Source: Eledone cirrhosa (taxonomy: Eukaryota). Taken from it: a stretch of DNA of 64,000 nt. Below the pieces are notes generated by a model that was not told the DNA's origin, did not search any database, and was given only the letters and a program-made list of their open reading frames with translations. Shown here piece by piece: positions 1-63,261 of this stretch (position 1 is the stretch's first letter; each line of letters begins with the position of its first letter). A program made the position numbers and the translations under genes. Where the stretch lies: NCBI GenBank assembly GCA_964016885.1, contig OZ024752.1, positions 22,010,001-22,074,000 on the forward strand. Direction: 5' to 3'.

Positions 1-454
1 TACATTACATATAGCTTGTGTATATAATGTGTGTATATATATATATATATATAAATTACATATAGCTTGTGTATATAACGTATGTATATATATATACACA
101 TTACATATAGCTTGTGTATATAATGTATGTATATATATACATTACATATAGCTTGTGTATATAATGTATGTATATATATATATACATACATTACATACAG
201 CTTGTGTATATAATATATGTATATATATACATACATTACATATAGCTTGTGTATATAATGTATGTATATATATATATACATACATTACATATAGCTTCTG
301 TATATAATGTATGTATATATATATATATACACATTACATATAACTTGTGTATATAATGTATGTATATATATATATATATACATTACATATAGCTTGTGTA
401 TATAATGTATGTATATATATATACGTACATTACATATAGCTTGCGTATATAATG

Positions 455-513
<59 letters not shown>

Positions 514-939
514 TACATATAGCTTGAGTATATAATGTATGTATATATATATATATATATACATACATTACATATAGCTTGTGTATATAATGTATGTATA
601 TATATATATACATACATTACATATAGCTTGTGTATATAATGTATATATATATATACATTACATATAGCTTGTGTATATAATGTGTGTATATATATATATA
701 TGCATACATTACATATAGCTTGTGTATATAATGTATGTATGTATATATATATATATATATATATATACATTACATATAGCTTGTGTATATAATGTATGTA
801 TATATATATATATACATACATTACATATAGCTTGTGTATATAATGTATATATATATATATACATACATTACATATAGCTTGTGTATATAATGTATGTATA
901 TATATATATATACACAACATATAGCTTGCGTATATAATG

Positions 940-978
<39 letters not shown>

Positions 979-1110
979 TACATATAGCTTGTGTATATAA
1001 TGTATGTATGTATATATATATATATATATATATATACATTATATATAGCTTGTGTATATAATGTATGTATATATATATACATACATTATATATAGCTTGT
1101 GTATATAATG

Positions 1111-1147
<37 letters not shown>

Positions 1148-1171
1148 TACATATAGCTTGTGTATATAATG

Positions 1172-1228
<57 letters not shown>

Positions 1229-2577
1229 TACCTATAGCTTGTGCAAATAATGTATGTATATATATATACATTACATATACCTTGTGTATATAATGTATGT
1301 ATATATACATACATTAAATATAGCTTGTGTATATAATGTATGTGTATATATATATATATACATTACATATAGCTTGTGTATATAATGTATATATATATAT
1401 ATATATATATACATACATTACATATAGCTTGTGTATAAAATGTATGTATATATATATATACATACATTACATATAGCTTGTGTATATAATGTATATATAT
1501 ATATACATACATTACATATAGCTTGTGTATATAATGTGTGTATATATATATATATATATACATTACATATAGCTTGTCTATATAATGTATGTATATATAT
1601 ATACACATTACGTATAGCTTGTGTATATAATGTATGTATATATATATATATACATACATTATATATAGCTTGTGTATATAATGTATGTATATATATATAT
1701 ACATACATTACATACAGCTTGTGTATATAATGTATGTATATATATACATACATTACATATAGCTTGTGTATATAATGTATGTATATATATATATACATAC
1801 ATTACATATAGTTTGTGTATATAATGTATGTATATATATATATACACATTACATATAACTTGTGTATATAATGTATGTATATATATATATACATTACATA
1901 TAGCTTGTGTATATAATGTATGTATATATATATACGTACATTACATATAGGTTGCGTATATAATGTATGTATATATATATATATATATACACTTTACATA
2001 TAGCTTGTGTATATAATGTATGTATATATATATATACATACATTACATATAGCTTGTGTATATAATGTATGTATATATACATACATTACATATAGCTTGT
2101 GTATATAATGTATATATATATATACATACATTACATATAGCTTGTGTATATAATGTATGTATATATATATATACACATTACATATAACTTGTGTATATAA
2201 TGTATGTATATATATATATATATACATTACATATAGCTTGTGTATATAATGTATGTATATATATATACGTACATTACATATAGCTTGTGTATATAATGTA
2301 TGTATATATATATATATACATACATACAGCTTGTGTATATAATGTATGTATATATATATACATTACATATAGCTTTTGTATATAATGTATGTATATATAT
2401 ATATACATACATTATATATAGCTTGTGTATATAATGTATATATATATATACATACATTACATATAGCTTGTGTATATAATGTATGTATATATATATATAT
2501 ATACATTACATATAGCTTGTGTATATAATGTATGTATATATATATACATACATTACATATAACTTGCGTATATAATG

Positions 2578-2613
<36 letters not shown>

Positions 2614-2756
2614 TATATATATATATATATAGATACATTATATATAGCTTGTGTATATAATGTATGTATATATATATACATACATTAAATATAGCTTGTG
2701 TATATAATGTATGTATATATATATATATACATTATATATAGCTTGTATATATAATG

Positions 2757-2817
<61 letters not shown>

Positions 2818-3362
2818 TACATATAGCTTGTGTATAAAATGTATGTATATATATATACATACATTACATATAGCTTGTGTATAAAATGTATGTATATATA
2901 TATATACATACATTATATATAGCTTGTGTATATAATGTATATATATATATACATACATTACATATAGCTTGTGTATATAACGTATGTATATATATATATA
3001 CACATTACATATAGCTTGTGTATATAATGTATGTATATATATATATACATTACATATAGCTTGTGTATATAATGTATGTATATATATATATACATACATT
3101 ACATACAGCTTGTGTATATAATGTATGTATATATATACATACATTACATATAGCTTGTGTATATAATGTATGTATATATATATATACATACATTACATAT
3201 AGCTTGTGTATATAATGTATGTATATATATATATATACACATTACATATAACTTGTGTATATAATGTATGTATATATATATATATATACATTACATATAG
3301 CTTGTGTATATAATGTATGTATATATATATACGTACATTATATATAGCTTGCGTATAAAATG

Positions 3363-3407
<45 letters not shown>

Positions 3408-3437
3408 CGAAGGAAATGTGGTAAGGAACCAGGTGGA

Positions 3438-3495
<58 letters not shown>

Positions 3496-4042
3496 TACAT
3501 ATAGCTTGAGTATATAATGTATGTATATATATATATACATACATACATTACATATAGCTTGTGTATATAATGTATGTATATATATATATACATACAATAC
3601 ATATAGCTTGTGTATATAATGTATATATATATATACATTACATATAGCTTGTGTATATAATGTGTGTATATATATATATATACATACATTACATATAGCT
3701 TGTGTATATAATGTCTGTATATATACACATTACATATAGCTTGTGTATATAATGTATGTATATGTATATATATATACACATTACATATAGCTTGTGTATA
3801 TAATGTATGTATGTATATATATATATATATACATTACATATAGCTTGTGTATATAATGTATGTATATATATATATACATACATTACATATAGCTTGTGTA
3901 TATAATGTATATATATATATACATACATTACATATAGCTTGTGTATATAATGTATGTATATTTATATACATTACATATAGCTTGTGTATATAATGTATGT
4001 ATATATATATACATACATAACATATAGCTTGCGTATATAATG

Positions 4043-4111
<69 letters not shown>

Positions 4112-4147
4112 TACATATAGCTTATGTATATAATGTATGTATGTATG

Positions 4148-4208
<61 letters not shown>

Positions 4209-4373
4209 TATATATAGCTTGTGTATATAATGTATGTATATATATATACATACATTAAATATAGCTTGTGTATATAATGTATGTATATATATATACATAC
4301 ATTATATATAGCTTGTGTATATAATGTATGTATATATATATATATACATTATATATAGCTTGTGTATATAATG

Positions 4374-4431
<58 letters not shown>

Positions 4432-4456
4432 TTACATATAGCTTGTGTATATAATG

Positions 4457-4501
<45 letters not shown>

Positions 4502-5248
4502 TACATATAGCTTGTGTATATAATGTATGTATATATATATACATTACATATACCTTGTGTATATAATGTATGTATATATACATACATTAAATATAGCTTG
4601 TGTATATAATGTATGTATATATATATATATATATATACATTACATATAGCTTGTGTATATAATGTATGTATATATATATATATATATATACATACGTTAC
4701 ATATAGCTTGTGTATAAAATGTATGTATATATATATACATACATTACATATAGCTTGTGTATATAATGTATATATATATATACATACATTACATATAGCT
4801 TGTGTATATAATGTGTGTATATATATATATATATACATTACATATAGCTTGTGTATATAATGTATGTATATACATATACACATTACGTATAGCTTGTGTA
4901 TATAATGTATGTATATATATATATATACATACATTACATATAGCTTGTGTATATAATGTATGTATATATATATATACATACATTACATACAGCTTGTGTA
5001 TATAATGTATGTATATATATACATACATTACATATTGCTTGTGTATATAATGTATGTATATATATATATACATACATTACATATAGCTTGTGTATATAAT
5101 GTATGTATATATATATATATACACATTACATATAACTTGTGTATATAATGTATGTATATATATATATATACATTACATATAGCTTGTGTATATAATGTAT
5201 GTATATATATATACGTACATTACATATAGGTTGCGTATATAACGTATG

Positions 5249-5282
<34 letters not shown>

Positions 5283-5693
5283 CATTACATATAGCTTGAG
5301 TATATAATGTATGTATATATATATATATATACATACATTACATATAGCTTGTGTATATAATGAATGTATATATATATATACATACATTACATATAGCTTG
5401 TGTATATAATGTATATATATATATATACATTACATATAGCTTGTGTATATAATGTATGTATATATATATATACATACATTACATATAGCTTGTGTATATA
5501 ATGTATGTTTATATATATATACATACATTACATATAGCTTGTGTATATAATGTATGTATATATATATATATACACATTACATCTAACTTGTGTATATAAT
5601 GTATGTATATATATATATACATTACATATAGCTTGTGTATATAATGTATGTATATATATATACGGACATTACATATAGCTTGCGTATATAATG

Positions 5694-5752
<59 letters not shown>

Positions 5753-6818
5753 TACATAGAGCTTGAGTATATAATGTATGTATATATATATATATATATA
5801 TACGTACATTACATATAGCTTGTGTATATAATGTATGTATATATACATATACATACATTACATATAGCTTGTGTATATAATGTATATATATATATACATT
5901 ACATATAGCTTGTGTATATAATGTGTGTATATATATATATATACATACATTACATATAGCTTGTGTATATAATGTATGTATATATATATACACATTACAT
6001 ATAGATTGTGTATATAATGTATGTATATATATATATACATACATTACATATAGCTTGTGTATATAATGTATATATATATATACATACATTACATATAGCT
6101 TGTGTATATAATGTATATATATATATACATACATTACATATAGCTTGTGTATATAATGTATGTATATATATATATACATACATTACATATAGCTTGTGTA
6201 TATAATGTAGGTATATATACATACATTACATATAGCTTGTGTATATAATGTATATATATATATACATACATTACATATAGCTTGTGTATATAATGTGTGT
6301 ATATATATATATATATACATACATTACATATAGCTTGTGTATATAATGTATGTATATATATATATATACATAGAGCTTGTGTATATAATGTATGTATATA
6401 TATATACATTACATATAGCTTGTGTATATAATGTATGTATATATATATATATACATACATTACATATAGCTTGTGTATATAATGTATGTATATATATATA
6501 TATACATAGAGCTTGTGTATATAATGTATGTATATATATATACATTACATATAGCTTGTGTATATAATGTATGTATATATATATATATATATACATCCAT
6601 TATATATAGCTTGTGTATAAAATGTATGTATATATATATATATACATACATTACATATAGCTTGTGTATATAATGTATATATATATATATACATACATTA
6701 CATATAGCTTGTGTATATAATGTATGTATATATATATATATATACATTACATATAGCTTGTGTATATAATCTATGTATATATATATACATACATTACATA
6801 TAGCTTGCGTATATAATG

Positions 6819-6867
<49 letters not shown>

Positions 6868-6891
6868 TACATATAGCTTGTGTATATAATG

Positions 6892-6935
<44 letters not shown>

Positions 6936-7251
6936 TTAAATATAGCTTGTGTATATAATGTATGTATATATATATACATTACATATAGCTTGTGTATATA
7001 ATGTATGTATATATATATATATATATATATGTATATACACACATTACATATAGCTTGTGTATATAATGTATGTATATATATATACATACATTACATATAG
7101 CTTGTGTATAAAATGTATGTATATATATATACATACATTACATATAGCTTGTGTATAAAATGTATGTATATATATATACATACATTAGATATAGCTTGTG
7201 TATATAATGTATATATATATATACATACATTACATATAGCTTGTGTATATA

Positions 7252-7296
<45 letters not shown>

Positions 7297-8014
7297 CATT
7301 ACATATAGCTTGTGTATGTAATGTATGTATATATATATACACATTACATATAGCTTGTGTATATAATGTATGTATATATATATATATATATATACACATT
7401 ACATATAGCTTGTGTATATAATGTATGTATGTATATATATATATATATATATACATTACATATAGCTTGTGTATATAATGTATGTATATATATATATACA
7501 TACATTACATATAGCTTGTGTATATAATGTATGTATATATATATATACATACATTACATACAGCTTGTGTATATAATGTATGTATATATATATAGATTAC
7601 ATATAGCTTGTGTATATAATGTATGTATATATATATATATACATACATTATATATAGCTTGTGTATATAATGTATGTATATATATATATACATACATTAC
7701 ATATAGCTTGTGTATATAATGTATATATATATATACATACATTACATATAGCTTGTGTATATAATGTATGTATATATATATATACATACATACATTACAT
7801 ATAGCTTGTGTATATAATGTATGTATATATATATATATACACATTACATATAACTTGTGTATATAATGTATGTATGTATATATATATATATATACATTAC
7901 ATATAGCTTGTGTATATAATGTATGTATATATATATACATACATTACATATAGCTTGCGTATATAATGTATGTGTATATATATATACATTACATATAGCT
8001 TGTGTATATAATGT

Positions 8015-8043
<29 letters not shown>

Positions 8044-8045
<2 letters not shown>

Positions 8046-8650
8046 TCAGGTCACCAGTTGGTGCTACTGGTAACATGTATCCCAGTACAACCTGTCTCAT
8101 GGTCGGGTTGTTGGCGACTAAACTGGCAACCCCACCAAGGTTTCTTGGTGAGGAGGGTGACTTTGGACATCCTGCAGGACTAAAAACAAAACCTGTCAAA
8201 GGGCAAAGGAGCTCTTAAGAGTCAATGGCCATCCAAAATCACCGGGAGAGATGACCCCTTAGCCTTTGTCAAGGCAGAATTCTAGGAGAAGCAAAACTCT
8301 GATATAACACCTGCAACCCTGATGGTATCCAATGATGTTGACTTGTTCTTCTTTTTGGTAAATATCATCTTGGTTAAGGGAGTGGGACTGGCTTTGTGCA
8401 GTGCCTTTGCTCACTATAAAAGCTTCACGGCACAGGCATTGCTTTATATCTGGAGATCTTTCTGCACTTGTCGTTACATGGTACCATGGGCCCAGCACTA
8501 TGTGTCAATAATTGTCACAGGTGTAGTGTTTGTACCAGAGTTTTCAAGTCGCTGGCTGGACTAAAAAGTCATATTCGTTCAGCGCATCGGTAGGGGTTCT
8601 CCTACATGGATATAAAGTATTGGCCGTACTCGAAAACGAGTTGGCAGCCA

Positions 8651-8652
<2 letters not shown>
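8044..8652. mobile_element. ~610-bp interspersed repeat inserted in a (TA)n spacer of the satellite (copy 1; possibly RTE-LINE derived)
   Basis: Near-identical copy at 10424-11030, diverged inverted copy at ~35650-36275, partial match at ~16370-16480. Confidence 0.75.
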
Positions 8653-8706
<54 letters not shown>

Positions 8707-9330
8707 TATATATAGCTTGTGTATATAATGTATGTATATATATATACATACATTAAATATAGCTTGTGTATATAATGTATGTATATATATATACATACAT
8801 TACATATAGCTTGTGTATATAATGTATGTATGTATATATATATATATATACATTACATATAGCTTGTGTATATAATGTATGTATATATATATACATACAT
8901 TACATATAGCTTGCGTATATAATGTATATATATATATACATACATTACATATAGCTTGTGTATATAATGTGTGTATATATATATATATATATATACATAC
9001 ATTACATATAGCTTGTGTATATAATGTATGTATGTATATATATATACACATTACATATAGCTTGTGTATATAATGTATGTATATATATATATACATACAT
9101 TACATATAGCTTGTGTATATAATGTATATATATATATACATACATTACATATTGCTTGTGTATATAATGTATATATATATATACATACATTACATATAGC
9201 TTGTGTATATAATGTATGTATATATATATATACATACATTACATATAGCTTGTGTATATAATGTATGTATATATATATATATATACACTTTACATATAGC
9301 TTGTGTATATAATGTATGTATATATACATT

Positions 9331-9530
9331 ACATGCACTTTTTTGATGGGTTGTGGTGCACCTGGGCACTGTGCACAATATTTCATTATTGTTATTGTTA
9401 TTATATCATGACTCATACACTGTTTATTTTCCTGACATTTGTACATTATTCTATGTACTATACATGCACCTTTGATGAGTTGTAGTGCACCTGAGCACTG
9501 TACACAATAATTTCATTATTATTATTATTA
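9331..9530 (+). mobile_element. Duplicated 3' tail of a CR1/L2-type LINE inside the satellite
   Basis: CACTGTACACAATAATTTCATTATTATT tail, matching the LINE end at 46730-46866. Confidence 0.65.
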
Positions 9531-9931
9531 TATAGCTTGTGTATATAATGTATGTATATATATATATATATATATATACATACATTACATATAGCTTGTG
9601 TATATAATGTATGTATATATACATACATTACATATAGCTTGTGTATATAATGTATATATATACATACATTACATATAGCTTGTGTATATAATGTGTGTAT
9701 ATATACATGTATACATACATTACATATAGCTTGTGTATATAATGTATGTATATATATACACATTACATATAGCTTGTGTATATAATGTATGTATATATAT
9801 ATATATATATATACACATTACATATAGCTTGTGTATATAATGTATGTATGTATATATATATAATAATAATAATAATGAAATTATTGTGTATATATATATA
9901 TATACATTACATACAGCTTGTGTATATAATG

Positions 9932-9983
<52 letters not shown>

Positions 9984-10164
9984 CATTACATATAGCTTGT
10001 GTATATAATGTATGTATATATATATATATTCATACATACAGCTTGTGTATATAATGTATGTATATATATATACATTACATATAGATTGTGTATATAATGT
10101 ATGTATATATATATATATATTTATATATATATACATACATTATATATAGCTTGTGTATATAATG

Positions 10165-10219
<55 letters not shown>

Positions 10220-10381
10220 TACATATAGCTTGTGTATATAATGTATGTATATATATATACATACATTATATATAGCTTGTGTATATAATGTATGTATATA
10301 TATATACATACATTATGTATAGCTTGTGTATATAATGTATCTATATATATATACATACATTATATATAGCTTGTGTATATA

Positions 10382-10423
<42 letters not shown>

Positions 10424-11030: not shown

Positions 11031-11572
11031 ATATATATATATATATACATACATTATATATAGCTTGTGTATATAATGTATCTATATATATATACATACA
11101 TTAGATATAGCTTGTGTATATAATGTATGTATATATATATACATACATTATATATAACTTGTGTATATAATGTATGTATATATATATACATACATTATAT
11201 ATAGCTTGTGTATATATGTATGTATATATATATATACATACATTATATATAGCTTGTGTACTGCTGTCAGCGAATGTGATGACAGTTTCATTAATTATGC
11301 AGAAATATCATTTACTTAAATTTGAAATATACTGAACACACACACACGCATGCAAAAACACACACATGCACACACATACACACACATATATACACACATA
11401 CACATGCACATACATGTGTACACACATGCACACACACATATATATCTAACATCATCCTCAGCTGTCCTCCATGCTGGCATTGGTTGAATTGGTTGTCATG
11501 TTCTGAGACTAAATAAAATCTCTGACCAGTCCTGCTCATACATCGCTGGATGCCCTTTCTAATGCCAACAGC

Positions 11573-12706
11573 TTTACAGAGTGGACTGGGTGCATTTTAT
11601 TGTGACACCAGCGCTACCTCTTTACAGAGTGGACTGGGTGCATTTTATTTTGACACCAGCACTACCACTTTACAGAGTGGACCGGGTGCATTTTATTGTG
11701 ACACCAGCACTACCTCTTTACAGAGTGGACTGGGTGCATTTTATTGTGACACCAGCACTACCTCTTTACAGAGTGGACTGGGTGCATTTTATTGTGACAC
11801 CAGCACTACCTCTTTACAGAGTGAACTGGGTGCATTTTATTGTGACACCAGCACTACCTCTTTACATAGTGAACTGCGTGCATTTTATTGTGACACCAGC
11901 ACTAACTCTTTACAGAGTGGACTGGGTGCATTTTATTGTGACACCTGCACTAACTCTTTATAGAGTGGACTGGGTGCATTTTATTGTGACACCTGCACTA
12001 ACCTTTACAGAGTGGACTGGGTACATTTTATTGTGACACCAGCACTACCTCTTTACAGAGTGGACTGGGTGCATTTTATTGTGACACCAGCACTACCTCT
12101 TTACAGAGTGGACTGGGTGCATTTTATTGTGACACCAGCACTACCTCTTTACAGAGTGAACTGGGTGCATTTTATTGTGACACCAGCACTACCTCTTTAC
12201 AGAGTGAACTGCGTGCATTTTATTGTGACACCAGCACTAACTCTTTACAGAGTGGACTGGGTGCATTTTATTGTGACACCTGCACTAACTCTTTATAGAG
12301 TGGACTGGGTGCATTTTATTGTGACACCTGCACTAACCTTTACAGAGTGGACTGGGTACATTTTATTGTGACACCAGCACTACCTCTTTACAGAGTGGAC
12401 TGGGTGCATTTTATTGTGACACCTACACTAACCTTTACAGAGTGTGCTGGGTGCATTTTATTGTGACACCAGCACTACCTCTTTACAGAGTGAACTGGGT
12501 GCATTTTATTGTGACACCTGCGCTACCCTTTACAGAGTGAACTGGGTGCATTTTATTGTGATACCAGCACTACCTCTTTACAGAGTGGACTGGGTGCATT
12601 TTATTGTGATACCAGCACTACCTCTTTACAGAGTGGACTGGGTGCATTTTATTGTGATACCAGCACTACCTCTTTACAGAGTGGACTGAGTGCATTTTAT
12701 TGTGAT
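11573..12706. repeat. 48-bp minisatellite (TTTACAGAGTGGACTGGGTGCATTTTATTGTGACACCAGCACTACCTC), ~23 copies
   Basis: Direct tandem units with a 16-aa periodic translation. Preceded by GCTGGATGCCCTTTCTAATGCCAAC, a motif of the local SINE-like family. Confidence 0.95.
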
Positions 12707-13420: not shown

Positions 13421-14862
13421 TGTGGTGGCGGTGGTAGTCGTGGTGGTGGTGGTGGTCGTCGTCGTCGTCGTCGTCGTCGTCGTGGTAGTGGTCATGGTGG
13501 TGGTGGTGGTGGTGGCGGTGGTGGTCGTCGTCGTCGGGGTGGTGGTGGTCGTCGTCGTCGTGGTAGTGGTCGTGGTGGTGGTGGCAGTGGCGGTGGTGGT
13601 GGTGGTGGTGGCGGTGGCGGTGGTCGTGGTCGTAGTGGTGGTGGCGGTGGTCGTCGTGATGGTGGTGGTGGTGGTGGTTGTAGTAGTGGTGGTGGCGGTA
13701 GTGGTGGTGGTGGTGATGGTCGTGGTGGTGGTGGTGGTTGTAGTAGTGGTGGTGGCGGTAGTGGTGGTGGTGGTGATGGTCGTGGTGGTGGTGGTGGTAG
13801 TAGTGGTGATGGTTGTTGTGGTGGTGGTGCTGGTGGTGGTGGTGGTGGTGGTGGTTGTAGTGGTGGTGGTGGTGATGGTGGTGGTGATGGTGGTGGTGGT
13901 GGTGGTGGTAGTAGTGGTGATGGTTGTTGTGGTGGTGGTGCTGGTGGTGGTGGTGGTGGTGGTGGTGGTGGTTGTAGTGGTGGTGATGGTGGTGGTGATG
14001 GTGGTGGTGGTGGTGGTAGTAGTGGTGATGGTTGTTGTGGTGGTGGTGCTGGTGGTGGTGGTGGTGGTGGTGGTTGTAGTGGTGGTGGTGGTGATGGTGG
14101 TGGTGATGGTGGTGGTGGTGGTGGTAGTAGTGGTGATGGTTGTTGTGGTGGTGGTGCTGGTGGTGGTGGTGGTGGTGGTGGTGGTGGTTGTAGTGGTGGT
14201 GGTGGTGGTGGTTGTAGTGGTGGTGGTGGTGGTGGTGGTGGTGGTGGTGGTGGTGGTTGTAGTGGTGGTGGTGGTGATGGTCGTGGTGGTGGTGGTGGTG
14301 GTGGTGGTAGTAGTGGTGATGGTTGTTGTGGTGGTGGTGCTGGTGGTGGTGGTGGTGGGGGTGGTGGTGGTTGTAGTGGTGGTGGTGGTGGTGGTGGTGG
14401 TGGTTGTAGTGGTGGTGGTGGTGATGGTGGTGGTGATGGTGGTGGTGGTGGTGATGGTGGTCGTGATGGTGGTGGTGGTGGTGATGGTGGTCGTGATGGT
14501 GGTGGTGGTGGTCGTCGTGGCGGTGGTGGAGCTAGTGGTGGTGGTGGTGGTAGTAGTGGTGATGGTAGTGATGATGGTGGTGGCGGTGGTGATGGTGGTG
14601 ATGGTGGTGGTCGTGGCGGTGGTGGAGCTAGTGGTGGTTGTGTTGGTAGTAGTGGTGATGGTGGTGGTGGTTGTGGCGGTGGTGGAGCTAGTGGTGGAGC
14701 TAGTGGTAGTAGTGGTGATGGTGGTGATGATGGTGGTGGTGGTCATGGCGGTGGTGGAGCAAGTGGTGGTTGTGGTGGTAGTAGTGGTGATGGTGGTGAT
14801 GATGGTGGAGGTCGTGGTGGTGGTGGTGGTGGTGTTGGTGGTGGTGGTGATGGTGGTGGTGT
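13421..14862. repeat. (GGT)n/(ACC)n trinucleotide tract with GAT/GTA/GTC variants
   Basis: ~1.44 kb; the poly-V and poly-T ORFs are by-products. Confidence 0.95.
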
Positions 14863-44100: not shown

Positions 44101-44693
44101 ATAATAAACCTTTAAGGAATTACACCAGTCCAGCCTCCTGTTATTTTATAATAATTAACTCCGTACTTGCACCACCAACAACACAAACGAAGACAGGTGA
44201 GTTACATTACGTCGAGTGCTCTCCCTAATATTACATCGAGGTTGACCATACGGAATGACCAGTTCTATCCAGTGGTGAACCAACAAACCTAAATGTATAT
44301 ATATATAGAGAGAGAGCGGGGGATAGCTTCTACAGGAACTGTTTCATTTGAATGAAACACTTCACACTTCTAGTCCTGTAGAAGCCATTTCTATATTAAA
44401 TTTGGCGTTTACACTCTACTAATGTATTGAGTACCTTACTTACTGTGGTTACCTCCGATTGAACCCGGGACTTATATATATATATATATACTTCATCTTG
44501 AATTTTAGCTATTTTATTCAATTCCAGTTACTTCCCTTGCATCATTTATTTTTGTTTATGAAATTCACAACTGACCTTTGAAACGTTTTCTGATAAAGCC
44601 GCAAACATTGACATATTTGGGGACATATTTGTTGGGTGTGGTCATATTTACTATTTCGTACGTTCGCCGTTTTGTGTCACATAAGTGTTGACC

Positions 44694-46445
44694 ATGGAAA
44701 AGCCCATTACGGAAATGAGAAACCCAATTTCAAGACACATCGATGTGTCAACACCACAGGAAATGGTGAAAACCTTCGAGATGTGTGATTCAGAAATATT
44801 TTCTGGTTGGGGAAATTACAAAGATCGAACAGTTTTCAGCGATGCTATACTGGATACTATTGCTACTGTACAACAACTTACAACTTCTGTAATACAAGAT
44901 CCCGCCAGAAGTGCAGTAGTTCTCTCTGGGTGTGGTACATCAGGAAGATTGGCATTTCTTGTGGCTAGAGCCATGAATAAAAGACTGAAGGAAATGGGAT
45001 CGAATGAGACATGTTTCCGTTACATCATTGCCGGAGGAGACGAAGCACTGTTTACTTCACAAGAAATTTACGAAGATGATCCTCAGTTAGGTGCGGACTT
45101 ACTGATGAAAGCAACCTCAGAGAAAAGCTATGTTTTATACGTAGGCATCACTTGTGGACTTTCAGCGCCGTTCGTAGCTGGACAGTTGGACCACTGTATG
45201 AAACATTTGACGAAGTACACACCGGTTCTAATTGGGTTTAATCCCAGTAGCCAAGCTAGGAAAACCAGCATCGAAAAATGGGGAGGTAAGAGTTTTAGTG
45301 ATGTTATGGAATCTTATCTGGCAATTGTTGCAGAAGGTAAGGCATTTCTAATTAATCCAATAGTGGGACCTGAAGCTATTTGTGGTTCAAGCCGAATGAA
45401 GGGTGGATCAGTGACAAAAATTATATTAGAAAGTATTTTTATTCCAGCAATTTTGAAATCTTTGGATGAATTTAATTCTTTATCAATGCCTCCTCTGTCT
45501 AACCTACTTGCCAGTTACCAAGCAATCTGTCGAAGTGTCTATTCTAAGACAGATCAGATTGCACAGTTAATTGAATTATCAGGAAGCTGTCTCTGCTCAA
45601 ACTGTCATCTCTACTACCTCGGGTATAGCAGCATTGGCATTATGGCCTTGATTGACGCCTCGGAATGTTGTCCAACTTTTGGGTCTGACCCAACAGATGT
45701 GAATGCATATCTTGCTGGGGGTTATCACACATTGGCTAACCAAGAAGGGGATCTCAGTGTCCAAAATAGAGGATCAGACATATCACTGAAGTATTTTAAC
45801 GAATTTGCAGCTACACATTTAAAAGAAGGTGACTTGATTGTTGTTTTAAACAATGACGAAAGTAATGTTTCATTAACTTTGCCTTCTCTACCCAGACATA
45901 AAATAATTCAGCTTCAATTCATTCCCCATGCAATAATGAAACCTTCACTTGAAACAAAGAACCAGTTTATCAATTTTGAAATGCCTTGGTATGATATCTC
46001 TGATTTAACTAACAGTAAAATTGCCATAGAATGGTCAACAGCATTTTGTGAATTTGCGGCTAAAATAGTCCTCAACGCCATTTCTACAGGAGCACATATT
46101 TTAAAAGGGAAAGTTTATGAAAATATTATGGTGGACTTGAAACTAAGTAATAACAAACTTTACCATAGATCTATTGGTATTTTAATGGAGTTCACTGAAC
46201 TGAGTTGGGAAGAAGCAACAGAATATGTATTGCGTATGTTGTACAACACTGACAAACTATCGCCAGAACTGTTATGTCAACCTATCAGTAATCATATAGA
46301 AATAGCAAAAAAGACAAATAAAGTGTTACCAACAGCTCTTTTGACTGCGATCAATAAATGTTCAGTGAGTGAGGCAAAGCAGATACTGGCTGGGCATATT
46401 GCTGTGAGGAAAGTCATAGCAGATAATGTGATACGTAAATATTGA
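44694..46445 (+). CDS. GCKR: Glucokinase regulatory protein-like (tandem SIS domains, MurQ/GKRP family), 583 aa, single coding exon
   Basis: PITEMRNP, SGCGTSGRLA, IIAGGD.AL..SQE..ED, GITCGLSAPFVAGQL, GPEAICGSSRMKGGS, DASECCPTF, NAISTGAHILKGKVYENIMVDL..SNNKL; ACCATGG start context. Confidence 0.9.
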   Translation: MEKPITEMRNPISRHIDVSTPQEMVKTFEMCDSEIFSGWGNYKDRTVFSDAILDTIATVQQLTTSVIQDPARSAVVLSGCGTSGRLAFLVARAMNKRLKEMGSNETCFRYIIAGGDEALFTSQEIYEDDPQLGADLLMKATSEKSYVLYVGITCGLSAPFVAGQLDHCMKHLTKYTPVLIGFNPSSQARKTSIEKWGGKSFSDVMESYLAIVAEGKAFLINPIVGPEAICGSSRMKGGSVTKIILESIFIPAILKSLDEFNSLSMPPLSNLLASYQAICRSVYSKTDQIAQLIELSGSCLCSNCHLYYLGYSSIGIMALIDASECCPTFGSDPTDVNAYLAGGYHTLANQEGDLSVQNRGSDISLKYFNEFAATHLKEGDLIVVLNNDESNVSLTLPSLPRHKIIQLQFIPHAIMKPSLETKNQFINFEMPWYDISDLTNSKIAIEWSTAFCEFAAKIVLNAISTGAHILKGKVYENIMVDLKLSNNKLYHRSIGILMEFTELSWEEATEYVLRMLYNTDKLSPELLCQPISNHIEIAKKTNKVLPTALLTAINKCSVSEAKQILAGHIAVRKVIADNVIRKY

Positions 46446-50575: not shown

Positions 50576-51616
50576 TCTGATTAAGCAGAACATGATTGAA
50601 AGGTTCTTACATAAAATTTTGATGGAAAGTATTTAAATAAGTATAAACACTATCACTGCTTAACGTCCATTTTTCCACACTTAGCATCAGTTAAAAGTGT
50701 TGTCTTGCTGTGGAACCAGAACAACCACTTTACAGCAATCTATCTGGTCTGATTACCGTGACTTGCTTATACAGAACTGTTTCTAGCTTCCTTTCTACAG
50801 TGATGGCTGGGTGCTTTATATCATAACACCAAAATGACCACTTTACAGTGTGGTCCGGGCACTTTTTGCTGTGGAACCAGAACGACCACTTTACAGTGTG
50901 GTCTGGGCACATTTTGTTGTAACACCAGCATGAAAAGTAGTCAATTAGGAAGTCTGTATATGCATACTAGATATACTAGAAATAGCACCCAAATCCACTA
51001 TAAATCATGCCCCTATTACTTCAGGGACCAGTCAAATGTGGGTTGGTGTGAAAACTTTAGCAACATCATCACTAGAAAAAGTACACAAGTACACAAACTT
51101 GCCAGACCTGCTAGAAATAGCAACTAAATCTTCAAATTACACCATACTGTCTTATAAAGGACATTGAATAATATAGTCCTAGCTATACTAGATCTGAATA
51201 AAAGATAAGATAGTCAGAATTGGAAAGTTTTTAATTACATATTTACTGCATTAGTGCTGACCTGGGAGATAAACAACAACAAAATAGAACAAATTTATTA
51301 TTACTGCATCTCTTTATTATATTGTATGCATATCATTATTATTATAACCCGGGAGAATATTGCTGATGGAGAAGAAAGAGGGATAATGAAAGAGAGCTGA
51401 TAAGAAATTATTACATGATTAACTACAGCATACTAGTAAAGTAGAAATATATATATATAGAGAGAGAGAGTGTAGAAGGAGTTGGGAATATAAGATACTA
51501 ATTTGTTTTCGTTGCCCTCGTGTTGGTGGTTTACCTGTTCACCAACTGTTTATAAGGGGAGAGAATGAAACCATAGCACTCTCCTCTGTTGAAGGATAAT
51601 AATAACCGGAGGATAT

Positions 51617-51655
51617 TTAGGAAATCTTTATGTCAGCAAATGATTTCTCCAAAGT
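51617..51655 (-). CDS. ARPC1: ARPC1 last coding exon (TLEKSFADIKIS*)
   Basis: tctcttttcag acceptor, phase 0; resembles the ARPC1 C-terminus SLESxxxxLKI. Confidence 0.8.
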   Translation of the reverse strand, partial: TLEKSFADIKIS

Positions 51656-52612: not shown

Positions 52613-52703
52613 CTTTACATCCCAAATTATGAGGTTACCATCAATACCAGAGGTGGAGAACTTGGAACAGCTTTCCTTAGTTCCAGTATGAACAACGATT
52701 TGT
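52613..52703 (-). CDS. ARPC1: ARPC1 exon (QIVVHTGTKESCSKFSTSGIDGNLIIWDVK)
   Basis: ttcttcag / gtttgt boundaries; phases consistent; WD40 motif. Confidence 0.9.
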
Positions 52704-54667: not shown

Positions 54668-54790
54668 TATATATATATATATATATCTCATCATAATATA
54701 TACACAAACAGATATGTAGAGACAAATACACTGATAGGAAGACAGTGAGACAGGTGTAGTGACAAGCAGACAATTAAAATGAAGACTTAC

Positions 54791-54883
54791 GTGATCGCGT
54801 TCTGATGAAGAGTCTTCATCGATTTCGAAGAATCATCCGGACCCACTGCCATTCGATCCAAGTCTCGGAATCTCTGCATTGCA
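54791..54883 (-). CDS. ARPC1: ARPC1 exon (SAMQRFRDLDRMAVGPDDSSKSMKTLHQNAIT)
   Basis: tattgcag / gtaagt boundaries; SAMQRF..LD and LHQN.IT motifs. Confidence 0.9.
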
Positions 54884-56352
54884 CTGCAATATAGAGAGTG
54901 AGTAGAGAGAGTGGTAGTGTGTGAGATAGAGAGAGAGAACACTGCAATATAGAGAGTGAGTAGAGAGAGTGGTAGTGTGAGATAGAGAGAGAGAATACTG
55001 CAACATAGAGAGTGAGTAGAGAGAGTGGTTGTGTGTGAGATAGAGAGAACACTGCAACATAGAGAGTGAGTAGAGAGAGAGAACACTGCAATATAGAGAG
55101 TGAGTAGAGAGAGTGAGAGAGTGAGTAGAGAGAGTGGTAGTGTGAGATAGAGAGAGAGAATACTGCAACATAGAGAGCGAGTAGAGAGAGAGAGAACACT
55201 GCAATATAGAGAGTGAGTAGAGAGAGTGGTTGTGTGTGAGATAGAGAGAGAGTAGAGAGAGTGGTAGTGTGTGAGATAGAGAGAGAGAGAGAACACTGCA
55301 ATATAGAGAGAGTAGAGAGAGTGGTTGTGTGTGAGATAGAGAGAGAGAATACTGCAATATAGAGAGTGAGTAGAGAGAGTGGTAGTGCGTGAGATAGAGA
55401 ACACTGCAATATAGAGAGTGGTAGTGTGAGATAGAGAGAGAGAGAATACTGCAACATAGAGAGTGAGTAGAGAGAGTGGTTGTGTGTGAGATAGAGAGAG
55501 AGAACACTGCAATATAGAGAGTGAGTAGAGAGAGTGGTAGTGTGTGAGATAGAGAGAACACTGCAATATAGAGAGTGAGTAGAGAGAGTGGTTGTGTGAG
55601 ATAGAGAGAGAGAATACTGCAATATAGAGAGTGAGTAGAGAGAGTGGTTGTGTGTGAGATAGAGAGAGAGAACACTGCAATATAGAGAGTGAGTAGAGAG
55701 AGTGGTAGTGCGTGAGATAGAGAGAGAGAGAGCGAACACTGCAATATAGAGAGTGAGTAGGGAGAGTGGTAGTGTGAGATAGAGAGAGAGAATACTGCAA
55801 CATAGAGAGTGAGTAGAGAGTGGTTGTGTGTGAGATAGAGAGAGAGAACACTGCAATATAGAGAGTGAGTAGAGAGAGTGGTTGTGTGTGAGATAGAGAG
55901 AGAGAACACTGCAATATAGAGAGTGAGTAGAGAGAGAGAGAACACTGCAATATAGAGAGTGAGTAGAGAGTGGTTGTGTGTGAGATAGAGAGAGAGAACA
56001 CTGCAATATAGAGAGTGAGTAGAGAGAGTGGTAGTGTGTGAGATAGAGAGAGAGAACACTGCAACATAGAGAGTGAGTAGAGAGTGGTAGTGTGTGAGAT
56101 AGAGAGAGAGAACACTGCAATATAGAGAGTGAGTAGAGAGAGAGAGAACACTGCAATATAGAGAGTGGGTAGAGAGAGTGGTAGTGTGTGAGATAGAGAG
56201 AGAGAACACTGCAACATAGAGAGTGAGTAGAGAGAGTGGTAGTGCGTGAGATAGAGAGAGAACACTGCAATATAGAGAGTGAGAACACTGCAATATAGAG
56301 AGTGAGTAGAGAGAGTGGTTGTGTGTGAGATAGAGACAACACTGCAATATAG
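54884..56352. repeat. ~55-bp purine/pyrimidine-skewed minisatellite, ~28 units, each containing TTGCAG|T on the minus strand
   Basis: ACTGCAA(T/C)ATAGAGAGTGAGTAGAGAGAGTGG(T/A)GTGTGTGAGATAGAGAGAGAGAAC repeated. Confidence 0.95.
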
Positions 56353-57394
56353 AGAGAAAGTAGCGAGAGTGGTATTGAGAGAGAAAGAGGTGTAAATGAG
56401 TGTGAGAGAGAGCATGAGTGCGTGTGTTTTTTTATTATCTTTCCACCTGCATCCTTGGAGGTCTGTCCTGGTGTGATACAATGCAACATCAGAGTTTCTT
56501 TGATACTTTCATTCCACTTCCTCCTAAATCTACCTCAGACCTTTGACATGACCATTCTACTTCTTCCTAAATCAGCCCCTGGCCCTGTGGCGATATCCTT
56601 GTGTTATCTGGATAATAAACTGCTTAGTAGTTTATCTTGACACGATAAATCATCTTTTTCTTAAATCTGACTCTGGCCCTGTGACCAGAGATCTTTGATA
56701 CACACACATCTGATGGTCTGGTTGGTATGCTGTTATTCATGTGACATGTATGAACCATTATACTTTTTATAGTTGTGACAATTGTTAGTCTTGTCCTCAC
56801 TATTTTCTTGACTTTATCTCATCTGGTCTTGTTGACTGCTTTTCTCAAACAACACATCTAATAGGTTGTGATTTTGTACACTAGGAGCTTAGCTATGGCT
56901 CTGATTTGGTATTGGTGTTTGAATGTAGGAATATAGTATTGGTAAGTTTAGTTTTAGTTTCATGTGCATAAGAGAAAGGAATAGTAAGAATGCATGTGCA
57001 TGTGTTCAAATGAGACACACAACTTGCTTGAGTAAATAAAGAAGAACCAATTGTCAGAGAATGGTGCTTAGTCCTTCATGAGTCATAGGTTCAATTTTCA
57101 GTTGACTCAGTTCATTTATTGATTGAACCTCCAGTTTCCAGCTAGCGAATAGCTGCCACTACATCACATAAAATTGACTTGATCATAACATAATACCAGT
57201 ACTTTGGCAGTAATCCAATGACCCAGTATAAATAGGTATTTTTGCTTATATATGCGGTGCCCCAGCATGGCCTCAACCTGTCGGCTGGAACACATAATGG
57301 AGTAATATAAACTGGGAGTGAGAGAGAAGGGGGAGAGAGAGATAGAGTGTAAGAGAGAGAGAGAGGAAGAATATCAATAGTAAAATAAACTAAC

Positions 57395-57498
57395 CTCTGA
57401 GTGCCGAGAGACTGCTCTTTGGGAACGTCCAAATTGCAAACAAAACTTAGGTTACCATTAGAGTTATAGTTGAACAGCAGGGGACAGCAATCAAACCC
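57395..57498 (-). CDS. ARPC1: ARPC1 exon (GFDCCPLLFNYNSNGNLSFVCNLDVPKEQSLGTQ)
   Basis: ttgtag / gttagt boundaries; GxDCCP.LF motif. Confidence 0.9.
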
Positions 57499-58586: not shown

Positions 58587-58662
58587 TGCAGCCACAACGT
58601 TTTCTTCAGACAGCCAAGTGCAAGAAATAAAGGGAAGAAACTTTTCCTTCATGACAGCAACC
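58587..58662 (-). CDS. ARPC1: ARPC1 exon (VAVMKEKFLPFISCTWLSEENVVAA)
   Basis: ctttgtag / gtaagt boundaries; phases 2 to 0 fit. Confidence 0.9.
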
Positions 58663-59075
58663 CTACAAAGGAGAGAAAGATTTAAAACATAGATCTAGTC
58701 CAACCCATGCAAGTGTTGAAAAAAGGACGTAAGAACGATGATGATGAGATCAAGCATTAAGTGAAATTTCCTTTTTTTTATAAAAAAGCATAAATTTATA
58801 TTGAGAGGATAATGAAATCTTAGATAATTTACACAGCAAACGTTTTAAGACTAGCACATATGTTCCATTTTTGGCTTGGTTTCTATGACTGGATGCCCTT
58901 CCTATTGCTTTACAGCATATACAGGAAGCATTTGCTTTTCATCCTGACAAACTGTTTTGTACTATAGAATAAGGGGTGTTTTGTATCGTAGAGCAAGGTG
59001 TTTTGTGCCATAGAACCAGGGGTGTTTTTAGGTGGTTTCATATGACAAGGGGTTAACAATAAGAAAACTACTCAC

Positions 59076-59178
59076 TTTTGACCATTATTTGCATTTACCA
59101 CAGAAATACTGGAGTCATGGCCTATCCAGGCCAGTTTGTCTCCCTTCGGTGAAAAAGACACATCATGTACCCAACCGC
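59076..59178 (-). CDS. ARPC1: ARPC1 exon (GWVHDVSFSPKGDKLAWIGHDSSISVVNANNGQK)
   Basis: tttcag / gtgagt boundaries; conserved WD40 repeat. Confidence 0.93.
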
Positions 59179-59581
59179 CTGAAACAATAGGGGACAGATA
59201 GAATATATAACAACAATAAAGAACAGAGTAAATAACAATAAGGGATATATAGAATAATAGGGGACAGATATAGTAAATAACACTAAGGGACAGGTAGAGT
59301 AACAACAGTAGGGGAAAGATAGAGTAACAATAGGGGACAGATACATTAATAATAAATGTTTCTACTTTTACCACAAGGCCAGCAATTATCCCAGTGCATT
59401 TCTGGTACTTTATTTTATTGACCCCATAAGGATGAAAGGCGAAGTTAATCTCGATGGGATTTGACCTCTGAATGCAAAAAGGGCCATAACTCTATGCTGC
59501 AAAGAATGGTATCCGACACTCTACCAATGGAACCAAGAAAGAATGAAAGAGAAAAAATGTTGAAAGAAACTGTTCCATTAC

Positions 59582-59691
59582 CTCCACCGTTAGAATACTC
59601 AGCTAACAGGGTGCCAAAAATCATCTTCCCATCCCACCAGGGACTTCCGGAAGGTTTGCTTTCCACATCTTTTACAAAACCAGAGAAGATT
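59582..59691 (-). CDS. ARPC1: ARPC1 exon (IFSGFVKDVESKPSGSPWWDGKMIFGTLLAEYSNGG)
   Basis: tttccag / gtaatg boundaries; resembles the ARPC1 segment FSAYIKEV..PWG.KMPFG.L. Confidence 0.9.
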
Positions 59692-59854
59692 CTGGAAAGA
59701 AGGAAGATTAAAATGGTGACATTAATGGAATTTGGAGTATTTCAAAAAGTTTTTAATGGTAAAAGGTTCAAATTAAACATAAGATGTATATATTATATAC
59801 ACAAACGACAGCCAACCAACAACCATACAAGATGTATATATTATATACACAAAC

Positions 59855-60079
59855 ATGAATATGGATGTAGAAGAACAAAAAAGACATGTCTAAAGAAGAT
59901 GATGGAAGAAGTAGTAAGCTTAGTGAGTGGGAGTGGGGTGCAGACAAGGCCCTTGTGGGCCTCATGACAAACTTCTTTAATTTGCCTTGTCTGCACCCCA
60001 CTCCCACTCACTAAGCTTACTACTTCTTCCATCATCATCTTTAGACATGTCTTTTTTGTTCTTCTACATCCATATTCAT
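59855..60079. repeat. Intronic inverted repeat, 96-bp arms, 33-nt spacer, one mismatch
   Basis: 59855-59950 is the reverse complement of 59984-60079. Confidence 0.92.
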
Positions 60080-60270
60080 CTCCATCACTTTCATCCTTCC
60101 TCAACATATGACCCAGTCATCTCATTCCATTTATCTTCACAGGCTCTATACCCATCATCCTTTGCAATTCCCTGTCTATCTTTTATCTCATTCACCAAAC
60201 TATTCTCATTTCCATTCTTTCCCACCTATCTCTAATTGATATATCAAGGTAAAAATTAAGAGATACTTAC

Positions 60271-60330
60271 CTGGTTTTAAAGTCAGTGGAGCCACATGCT
60301 AGCATAGCATTGTTTGGATGCCAATCCAAA
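60271..60330 (-). CDS. ARPC1: ARPC1 exon (LDWHPNNAMLACGSTDFKTR)
   Basis: tatttag / gtaagt boundaries; LDWHPNN motif. Confidence 0.93.
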
Positions 60331-61329
60331 CTAAATAGAAGGGAGAGAGAGAATGATTGAATAACTATACTTGGTTTTTGATTGTTATGAATGTAAGGTG
60401 TTTGCATCCACATGACAACCATCCTAAGGCTGGTTAGCAATACGATAAAAGCACCCAATACAAGCTGTGGAGTGGTTGGTATTAGGAAGTGCATCCAGCT
60501 GTAGAAACCTTGTCAAACAAGGGGCTGGGAAAACCTTTCAATGACAACTCTGCACTTGGTAGAATGTATGACCGTACGTAAGCGAGATGCAGACCTCTCG
60601 GCCTGTCTGGGAGGTTAATAGTCCCACTTCAGAACTGATTTGGTCAATGTAGACCCATCCAACCCTTGCTAGCAGGGAAAGTAGATGTTAAATGAAGATG
60701 ATAATGATGAATTGATTTAAAACTATAAACGAGTTTCTTGTTTAATCCTAGATGTCATTAAATAATTTAACTTATAATAAACAATTTGGTATAGATAGGA
60801 TGAAAGATAATGGACAGCATCTATAGCTCTGATCAGCCACTTAATTAGAATAAAACCAGCAGGAAACCACACAGATCTATGCCAGTTAAATGACTGAAGG
60901 TTATAGACATTGTTATCCTTCGTTCTATTCATTTCCTGTTCTCTTATATAAAACAGTTTACTTTACTGTAACCTCAAACCCAACTCCCATTGTTAAACAT
61001 TACCATATCTGCTCAAATATAAATGTATGAGTTTATTTTCAAAAACTTGTCCATCATCATTATTTTACATCGATTGTTTCATGCTTGCATGGATTGGACA
61101 GGTCCTTCTTAATACAGCATCCTCTCCACTTGTCACATTCCTTTGTCATTTATGTGAGCTTCAGTAATCTGAGATCAGCTCTCACCACTTCCAATGCCAT
61201 TATATTTATATAAAATAGTTTTAAAACAGATGGGTACCATGTACAACAAGTACAGTGATCATGTAATTATGATCTATACTTCAAAAGTAGATTTACATCT
61301 TATCTGCTTACTACAATAAAACTATTAGA

Positions 61330-61570
61330 GCAGTGGTAAGGATGTTGGACTTATGATCATAATGTCGTGGGCTCGATTCCTGGTATTGTGTTCTTGAGCA
61401 AAACACTTCATTTCAAGTTGCTTCAGTATACTCAGCTGTACTGTAAATGAGTACCAGTAATTGCTAGGAGTTTAATCTTGCGATGGACTGGCATCCTATT
61501 CAGGAGGGAGCCTTGTACTCTCAGATGCTTCACGTTACAAAACTGGCATAAGCACTAGCCTGATGAGCTT
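61330..61570 (+). mobile_element. tRNA-derived SINE (second family)
   Basis: A-box AGTGGTAAG, B-box GGCTCGATTCC, TGTGTTCTTGAGCAAAACACTT core, GCGATGGACTGGCATCC body. Confidence 0.7.
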
Positions 61571-61721
61571 TTATTGTATTGATAACCAGCCCTAGGACAG
61601 TTGTCATGTGGTTGCAAACCTAGCCCTTAATAACTCCTTGGGCTTTAAAATATTGGTGTGTGTGTGTAGCTATTGTTAAATACCAAACTAATAGTAAAAC
61701 TAAACAAACCAAAGAACTTAC

Positions 61722-61839
61722 CATGTAATGGTAGAGCGAATTGGTTTCTTAATGTGTTTGCTCACCCACCAATTGTTCTCTTCTTCAAAGTAGCAAACTG
61801 AAATAAGTCTGGCCCCACTACCAACAGCAAACTTGTTTT
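61722..61839 (-). CDS. ARPC1: ARPC1 exon ([39 protein letters not shown])
   Basis: Diagnostic ARPC1/Sop2 sequence; tttcag / gtaagt boundaries. Confidence 0.96.
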
Positions 61840-62219
61840 CTGAAATCCAAAAAGAGAGCAAATTAAGCAAGATCAAATTCCTATGAGATATATTTTGCTG
61901 GTTTTGTTTTTGTACATTAAACCTTTTATCAAGCAGAAGGTAGATTGTATGATGCCTGCATGAAAAGCAGGATGATGCATGGTAGTGATGATATTCAGGC
62001 AGTGAATGCTGGAGAGAAATGAATTGTGCATGCTCTACTAGGGAAGTAATATTAATGAAGCATGGATGGAGAAGAGATAGGTATGTAGGAGTGGGAAGAT
62101 GTTTGCACATGAGGGGGAGAAGACATGTACAGAGTGAGGAAAGAGTCTAGGTATATACATAGTAAGGTGGAGTTCCAAATATTTAGAGAGAAAGAGAGAA
62201 ATGTGAGCAATATAAGTAC

Positions 62220-62325
62220 CATTAGGAGACCACTTTACCACTGTAGCAGACCGGTTGAAGCGCAGGATAACCAAAATGGGAGTCCACTTCCCATTGTTGT
62301 AATTCCAAACATAGGCATTACGGTC
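62220..62325 (-). CDS. ARPC1: ARPC1 exon ([35 protein letters not shown])
   Basis: ttacag / gtactt boundaries; DRNAYVW motif. Confidence 0.95.
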
Positions 62326-62665
62326 CTGTAAATAGAAACAAACTTTTAACATTGCAGACAATTTTGAACATATTTCTGTAATGCTTTATGTACCAAACTG
62401 CTTGAAACCATCCCAGTTTCTACAATCCCAAATGGTTTGATTTAAAGTGTTTATATTTTTTTGAAAACCTCCTAACAAAATTTTAAGTAAAAAAAAGTCA
62501 TGTTAAAAATTATAAGCAATGTATTTCATTAGAAACCATCATTATCAACATCATCTAACTTCAATAAGATATGATGATGATGGTAATGGAAGAGTTAAGG
62601 GACACACACACACTGTGTGGTATAGATGTCTTAGAACAAAAACAATTGATGGTAATGTGTGGAAC

Positions 62666-62696
<31 letters not shown>

Positions 62697-63109
62697 ACAT
62701 GCATATGCATGGGTGCAGCATGTTCAAATGGTTAAGAAATTCACTTTGAAATGACAAAGCATGAAGCCCAGTGGAAGTCCAAAGATAGATACATTCATAG
62801 ATAGAACAAATCATTAGAATTTAGGGGAAACATGTTTTAAAAATATGAAAGAAAATTATTGGAATTAAAGTAATGAATGTAAAATGAAACACAGCAATGG
62901 CCAGGGTGACAAAAAGAGAAGTCAAGGATAATTGAAGATTCAAGCATCCTTACATAGAACATTGTTATAAACCCCCATGATATTTGACAGGTACTATGTT
63001 AGTATATACATATAATGCCATTCTCAAGTACACTGATGAGTGCACTTTATAATGGAGCTTTGTTAAACCTGTTAAGATTTTCAACAACAGCACCAAAAAT
63101 GAAACTTAC

Positions 63110-63261
63110 CGATCCGCATGTGACAATACGGTTACTTTTTGGAGCCCAATCAATACTGGTTACTTTTTGTCCATGTTCCGTCATTGTCTCATACTCCTGC
63201 CAGCCTCCACCGGTCTTTTTGTAGACCTTAACTTCGGTACTGTTAGACGACAAAGCTAATT
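63110..63261 (-). CDS. ARPC1: ARPC1 exon (LALSSNSTEVKVYKK..EHGQKVTSIDWAPKSNRIVTCGS); the start exon lies beyond the window
   Basis: cccccag / gtaagt boundaries; IDWAP.SNRIVTCG motif. Confidence 0.95.

Follow-up and report, generated by a model that had tools for sequence, protein, structure and literature searches.

Tandem copies of a splice acceptor at the end of an ARPC1 intron in the cephalopod Eledone cirrhosa

In the Eledone cirrhosa DNA analysed here, a stretch of 64,000 nucleotides referred to below as the window, one intron of the ARPC1 gene ends in an array of 28 acceptor-like sites, 27 decoys followed by the genuine acceptor, and the main transcript contig of the one spliced sample joins the upstream exon to the last of them. 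It is highly probable that this array arose by tandem amplification, that splicing of the main transcript takes place at the last copy, likely by exon definition, and that the repeat is a near-neutral passenger which is removed with the intron.

The array lies on the minus strand at 54884..56399 and, as delimited by TRF and sequence analysis, consists of 27 units of 23-97 nt together with a diverged unit at its 5' edge (56342..56399, minus strand). TRF reports a repeat at 54882-55936 with a period of 56 and a score of 1188, with overlapping rows reaching 56389; the 5' (upstream) edge is diffuse. Its 28 TGCAG sites have their last G at positions from 56342 down to 54884. The AGs of the 27 decoys occupy 54942..56343, and the genuine AG (54885-54884), placed by the splice junction described below, stands in the final unit (54884..54941), the last copy of the array being the genuine intron-exon boundary. 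The array is rich in C and T, with 6% G; its minus strand holds no GA dinucleotide and 11 AA dinucleotides, and the 28 acceptor-like AGs are the only AGs in its 1518 nt. The acceptor sites end in CTCTCTATATTGCAG in 21 of 28 cases, with a G variant in 7; CTCAC is found at -19..-15 in 23, and the base after the AG is T in all 28 (TG in 22, TA in 6). Each unit comprises an acceptor and the first one or two exon bases, a minimal exon share. These counts bear out the original prediction, made from the sequence, of about 28 tandem acceptors adjoining an ARPC1 exon, each with a pyrimidine tract, CTCAC and CTCTCTATATTGCAG followed by T, in an array without other AGs; a small correction is that the unit lengths are not uniform. 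In the final unit, yUnAy-like CTCAC motifs place an A at -16 (54899) and at -39 (54922), both candidate branch points. The 19 full-length units have a mean identity of 91% among themselves, and 24 distinct sequences occur among the 27 units; the 5'-most unit has a mean identity of 76% to the full-length units, whereas the unit at the 3' edge shows no such divergence, with 94% identity to the others. By blastn at E 0.01, the array unit matches nothing else in the 64,000-nt window. Other long tandem arrays are present in the window, at 1-10416, 11572-12705 and 13422-14861; they comprise an AT-rich unit of 47-49 bp repeated over about 8 kb, a 48-bp unit in 24 copies, and GTG as 480 triplets, and indicate a genome rich in such arrays.

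The ARPC1 gene itself is on the minus strand, where 11 modelled exons from 63261 to 51617 give a single open frame of 349 residues, the N-terminal coding part lying outside the model. Seven of these exons span 58587..63261 (63261-63110, 62325-62220, 61839-61722, 60330-60271, 59691-59582, 59178-59076 and 58662-58587). They are followed by the 104-nt exon on the 5' side of the array intron (57395..57498, ending in phase 2), the GT-AG intron with the array (54884..57394), the insert-helix exon (54791..54883, 93 nt, encoding (S)AMQRFRDLD... and followed by a GTAAGT donor), a 91-nt exon (52613..52703) and the last exon with its stop at 51617-51619 and the 3' UTR as far as the transcript contig reaches (51384..51655). 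Exon lengths in the model are 60-152 nt. At 2511 nt the array intron is the longest of the ten modelled, and 28 of its 97 AGs lie within the array. At its first exon the model is 98% identical to protein P0001, whose cluster includes ARPC1 proteins of Octopus and Argonauta and which resembles solved ARPC1 chains over the full length (E 2.8e-149 to ARPC1A), including the insert helix between blades. The SAMQRF of P0001 aligns with SAMERF of ARPC1A and TARERF of ARPC1B and corresponds by alignment to residues 297-302 of bovine ARPC1B; the exon had been taken to encode the ARPC1 insert helix, and these residues do fall inside the 287-326 insert, whose helix is described as binding mother-filament subunit M4 (PMC10514467, PMC9894260).

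Some further features of the locus may be recorded. The insert-helix exon, at 93 nt, is symmetric, so that its skipping would delete 31 residues in frame; no skipping junction for 54791-54883 is among the joints listed for the spliced sample. A strong pyrimidine tract with CAG occurs in the array intron at 57312-57365 (minus strand), 83 nt past the donor at 57394, with no good in-frame donor after it. At 59180-59345 (minus strand) a degenerate, pyrimidine-rich repeat of about 25 bp adjoins the acceptor of the exon at 59178 and contains one AG only, so that here the intron end is repeated but the acceptor is not. An intronless gene resembling that for the glucokinase regulatory protein (GCKR-like; 44685-46445, plus strand), 78% identical to an Octopus vulgaris protein, lies tail to tail with ARPC1.

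Four public runs, X1-X4, none of them recorded as RNA, were examined as contigs; X1-X3 come from one sample and behave like DNA. X4 has joints at 52703/54791 and 51655/52613, with CT..AC ends and at a depth of 998.7; because these coincide with modelled introns and X1-X3 have neither, X4 was treated as RNA. Behind 54885, X4 shows a loose end of 255 letters (the largest length listed), and since it reads as the end of the 57395..57498 exon, donor 57394 is joined to the last AG. The main contig of X4, the one spliced sample of the four runs, is spliced at the last, genuine AG, in agreement with the first of the outcomes originally envisaged, in which splicing skips the 27 decoys upstream. It had been proposed to read the junctions leaving this donor as a check, and the junction to the last AG is the one in the main contig; exclusive use of that AG is more than contigs from one sample can establish. 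No decoy junction occurs among the joints and loose ends listed for X4, beyond which lie a further 1535 loose ends and 78 joints, X4 being a single sample whose contigs drop rare forms and from whose placement 404 letters at repeats were left out. Since a transcript made with any decoy must contain the final unit, the depth over that unit bears on decoy use: it is 10.6 at 54904, 33.8 at 54920 and 28.6 in the array bin, or 1-3% of the exon depth, and the repeat is absent from the main contig, contigs being unable to show rare forms. Unique intron contigs in X4 have depths of 3.4-7.5, and collapsed unspliced RNA can account for the depth on the last two units. An insert between TQ and SAMQRF was found in 0 of 24 cephalopod ARPC1 proteins (25 aligned), which are from other species or transcript assemblies and do not imply whether their own genes have an array. 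At 51414 in the 3' UTR, X4 carries a T in place of the C of the window and of X1-X3; as the change is G-to-A on the transcript strand, an allele difference is likelier than A-to-I editing, and X4 may accordingly be another individual with another array length.

In origin, the array would be the last ~56 bases of the ARPC1 intron together with the opening one or two exon bases, amplified in tandem, probably through slippage or unequal exchange in the C/T-rich intron end, with the inner units presumably homogenised and the 5' edge left to diverge. Over -25..-1, 14 of the 27 decoys match the genuine site exactly and 22 differ from it by no more than one base, which leaves the intron side unable to discriminate between acceptors; with 14 identical copies and almost no exon sequence copied, the choice must stem from the exon side or from the downstream donor. 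Decoy and genuine sequences diverge from +2 or +3 onward. In the 30 nt after the AG the purine share is 0.17-0.30 for the 27 decoys vs 0.37-0.60 for the 11 real exons, ranges without overlap, the insert-helix exon standing at 0.57; TCTCT follows 27 of 27 decoys as against one of 11 real acceptors, and the exons that decoys would yield measure 151-1551 nt, compared with the 60-152 nt of this gene. No good donor was found within the array. Judged from this composition, exon definition is the likely mechanism of acceptor choice: the final AG alone would be recognised, having purine-rich exon sequence after it and the GTAAGT donor 93 nt on. Pyrimidine-tract-binding proteins on UCUCU runs perhaps assist exon definition. 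Folding of 54791-55300, the segment covered, gave no support to RNA structure as a means of hiding the decoys (z -1.25, with 11 of 100 shuffles folding as well). Frame also enters, as 19 of the 27 decoys shift the reading frame and lead to a stop that precedes the last junction by 116 or 133 nt. Under the vertebrate 55-nt rule, which may not be that of cephalopods, stops so placed would trigger nonsense-mediated decay, and stray products of the frameshifting decoys may be cleared in this way; such decay would hide decoy use. With the last copy alone defined as an exon start, the array would be a near-neutral passenger, lost with the intron.

A different balance, which we regard as unlikely, is that splicing does use the nearest decoys, although rarely, giving mostly frameshifted products that are degraded, and that array length modestly tunes the level of ARPC1. 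On their intron side the decoys look no weaker than the genuine site, the nearest of them would give an exon of 151 nt, within the range of this gene, and the stops noted above in 19 of 27 may expose the products to decay; proximal pseudo-sites are, moreover, described as active in the human 6-16 and CBS genes, where the nearest ones are used as well (PMC1557585). The X4 depth of 28.6 on the last two units also exceeds that of the unique intron, but the excess is that expected of 28 collapsed unspliced units, the DNA-like runs reaching 21-53x single-copy depth on the same bin, and no decoy junction appears among the X4 rows listed.

The original prediction had offered, as another outcome, alternative acceptors giving isoforms with variable insertions, and had pointed to the open frames of the array. 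All three minus frames indeed have no stop over 505 codons, against 47-49 stops in each plus frame, and the frame that continues into SAMQRF does so as predicted, though its extent from stop to stop is 54787..56508 (573 codons, minus strand) and not 54787-56481, position 56481 being in a TTG codon; it terminates at the TAA within the next donor, GTAAGT. As a sign of coding, these frames were rejected, since stop-free frames are within chance for the composition of the array: with the final unit shuffled, all frames are free of stops in 55% of cases for dinucleotide shuffling (n = 20,000) and in 23% for base shuffling (n = 100,000). Three of the six frames are likewise free of stops in the (GTG)n array of the window. 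The stop-free frame across the array is a by-product of composition and not a gene. Only eight decoys keep the frame (56342, 56288, 55739, 55352, 55199, 55163, 55052 and 54998; 8 of 27, p 0.84 against one third), and 7 of 27 units are divisible by three (p 0.54). Both values are at chance level, where a coding VNTR would keep its unit lengths at multiples of three, and there is no signal of selection for reading frame in the array.

That these eight decoys yield ARPC1 isoforms with a function, in which an insert of variable length precedes the mother-filament-binding helix, is exceedingly unlikely, even though they are in frame and stop-free and the first loop of the insert is described as partly disordered in a fission-yeast branch structure (PMC9894260). 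A further point in favour comes from gastropods. Among 105 ARPC1-like proteins, the distance from an LD anchor to the SAM-like motif is 10-12 residues in 85 and 34-40 in 8, with 12 unparsed; the eight long forms (P0166, P0208, P0178, P0211, P0190, P0216, P0220 and P0223) belong to six gastropod species, Gigantopelta aegis, Patella caerulea, P. vulgata, Bradybaena similaris, Aplysia californica and Biomphalaria glabrata, each also with a short form listed. In these annotated isoforms an acidic insert of 24-30 residues stands just ahead of the mother-filament-binding helix, at a junction homologous to 57395/54883, and it is likely a conserved alternative exon. The ARPC1 junction can therefore take an in-frame insert, at least in annotations, which counts against reading the array as silent. 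In Eledone, however, frame keeping is at chance and unit lengths vary in 2-nt steps, the nearest decoy is out of frame, and the array peptide is hydrophobic (GRAVY +0.86 overall and +1.16 for the shortest insert) in contrast to the acidic gastropod inserts, of which three were scored (-0.91 to -1.60). Candidates for a gastropod-like acidic cassette exon in 57394-56440 gave none, the most acidic having 15% D/E, and a tblastn search of 57500-54780 with three gastropod junction regions had its best E at 0.056, over six residues. With an array depth of 1-3% of the exon, 19 of 27 decoys frameshifting and no insert in the 24 cephalopod proteins, the proposal of variable-insert isoforms is not supported. 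It is likewise very unlikely that some tissue uses the in-frame decoys (the nearest, at 54998, adding 38 residues), a young and length-variable array thereby creating, at the position of the annotated gastropod insert, new ARPC1 isoforms that tune the grip of Arp2/3 on the mother filament.

That the array is an artefact of assembly is scarcely credible, although no record spans it and X1-X3 may be the assembly's own sample. Contigs are placed over the array on its last two units only, and their summed depth is no copy number; read with that reserve, X1-X3 have a contig depth near 9-11 on single-copy sequence, rising to 227-296 at 54904 and to 397-492 across the final two units. At 54904 alone this is 21-32x single-copy depth, close to 28 copies, and the depth in these runs fits about 28 collapsed copies; the 24 distinct sequences among the 27 units also speak against an artefact. 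The array is real.

Stepwise removal of the intron (recursive splicing) through the tandem acceptors, also raised in the original prediction and favoured by the many strong acceptors in series, has virtually no chance of being correct: the signature of a recursive, or ratchet, splice site is an AG with the donor GT directly after it (AG/GT), this is found in 0 of the 28 sites (TG in 22, TA in 6), leaving stepwise splicing without support, and the GTs that a first step would leave, at -1 or +1, are poor donors (GTGTTC, GTTCTC, GTATTC) compared with the GTAAGT-like donors of the gene.

Splicing at the last copy, with the array as a tolerated passenger, has close parallels in published cases. The 'mirages' of amphioxus are described as minisatellite-like copies of intron-exon boundaries (PMC3087553), with BflGb6, Adh3, troponin C and PGBD5 as the genes named (PMC3087553, PMC3902484). 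The mirage of the globin gene BflGb6 is described as the 3' end of an intron plus the start of an exon, with homogenised inner units, excluded edges and undisturbed regular splicing (PMC3087553), and the same description is given for Adh and troponin C (PMC3902484). The ARPC1 array shares with them a tandem intron end and exon start with splice signals, normal mRNA, homogenised inner units and a diverged edge unit. It is a head-to-tail repeat within a gene (27 units and an edge unit, TRF score 1188) whose unit crosses the gene's own intron-exon boundary by one or two exon bases; its repeats carry splice signals while the mRNA is regular, as seen in the main X4 contig of one sample, and divergence is seen at the 5' edge (76% vs 91%), the 3' edge standing at 94%. 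It differs in having 28 copies against 3-6 in BflGb6, in being nearly pure acceptor with its one or two exon bases per unit, and in occurring in a cephalopod and not a lancelet. On the donor side, the 37-bp VNTR in intron 7 of human F7 is a minisatellite listed alongside those of 6-16, CBS intron 13, lamin B2 and PDGF; the copy adjoining the exon is reported to be used in these cases and to be the sole one used in F7, lamin B2 and PDGF (PMC1557585). Both types repeat identical splice sites into the intron with the exon-adjoining copy used, the F7 type repeating the donor whereas the ARPC1 array repeats the acceptor. Here the copy that wins is transcribed last, which no 5'-to-3' scan for the first site can account for. 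Human CBS 844ins68, a duplicated intron/exon junction at an intron 3' end, is likewise described as strongly favouring the downstream copy with normal mRNA (PMC2630376), although with two copies and a longer exon piece in place of 28 copies and one or two exon bases. The ARPC1 array thus likely belongs to the published mirage class, with a donor-side mirror in human F7, and is likely a tolerated repeat.

A literature search found no mirage case naming octopus or cephalopods, which is not a claim that none has been published. The class and its silence are already in print, and the ARPC1 array extends mirages to a cephalopod. Its importance would be greater if the decoys were active in some tissue or if array length altered the level of ARPC1. 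With 14 upstream copies matching the used site over 25 bases, it offers a clean natural experiment on 3' splice-site choice.
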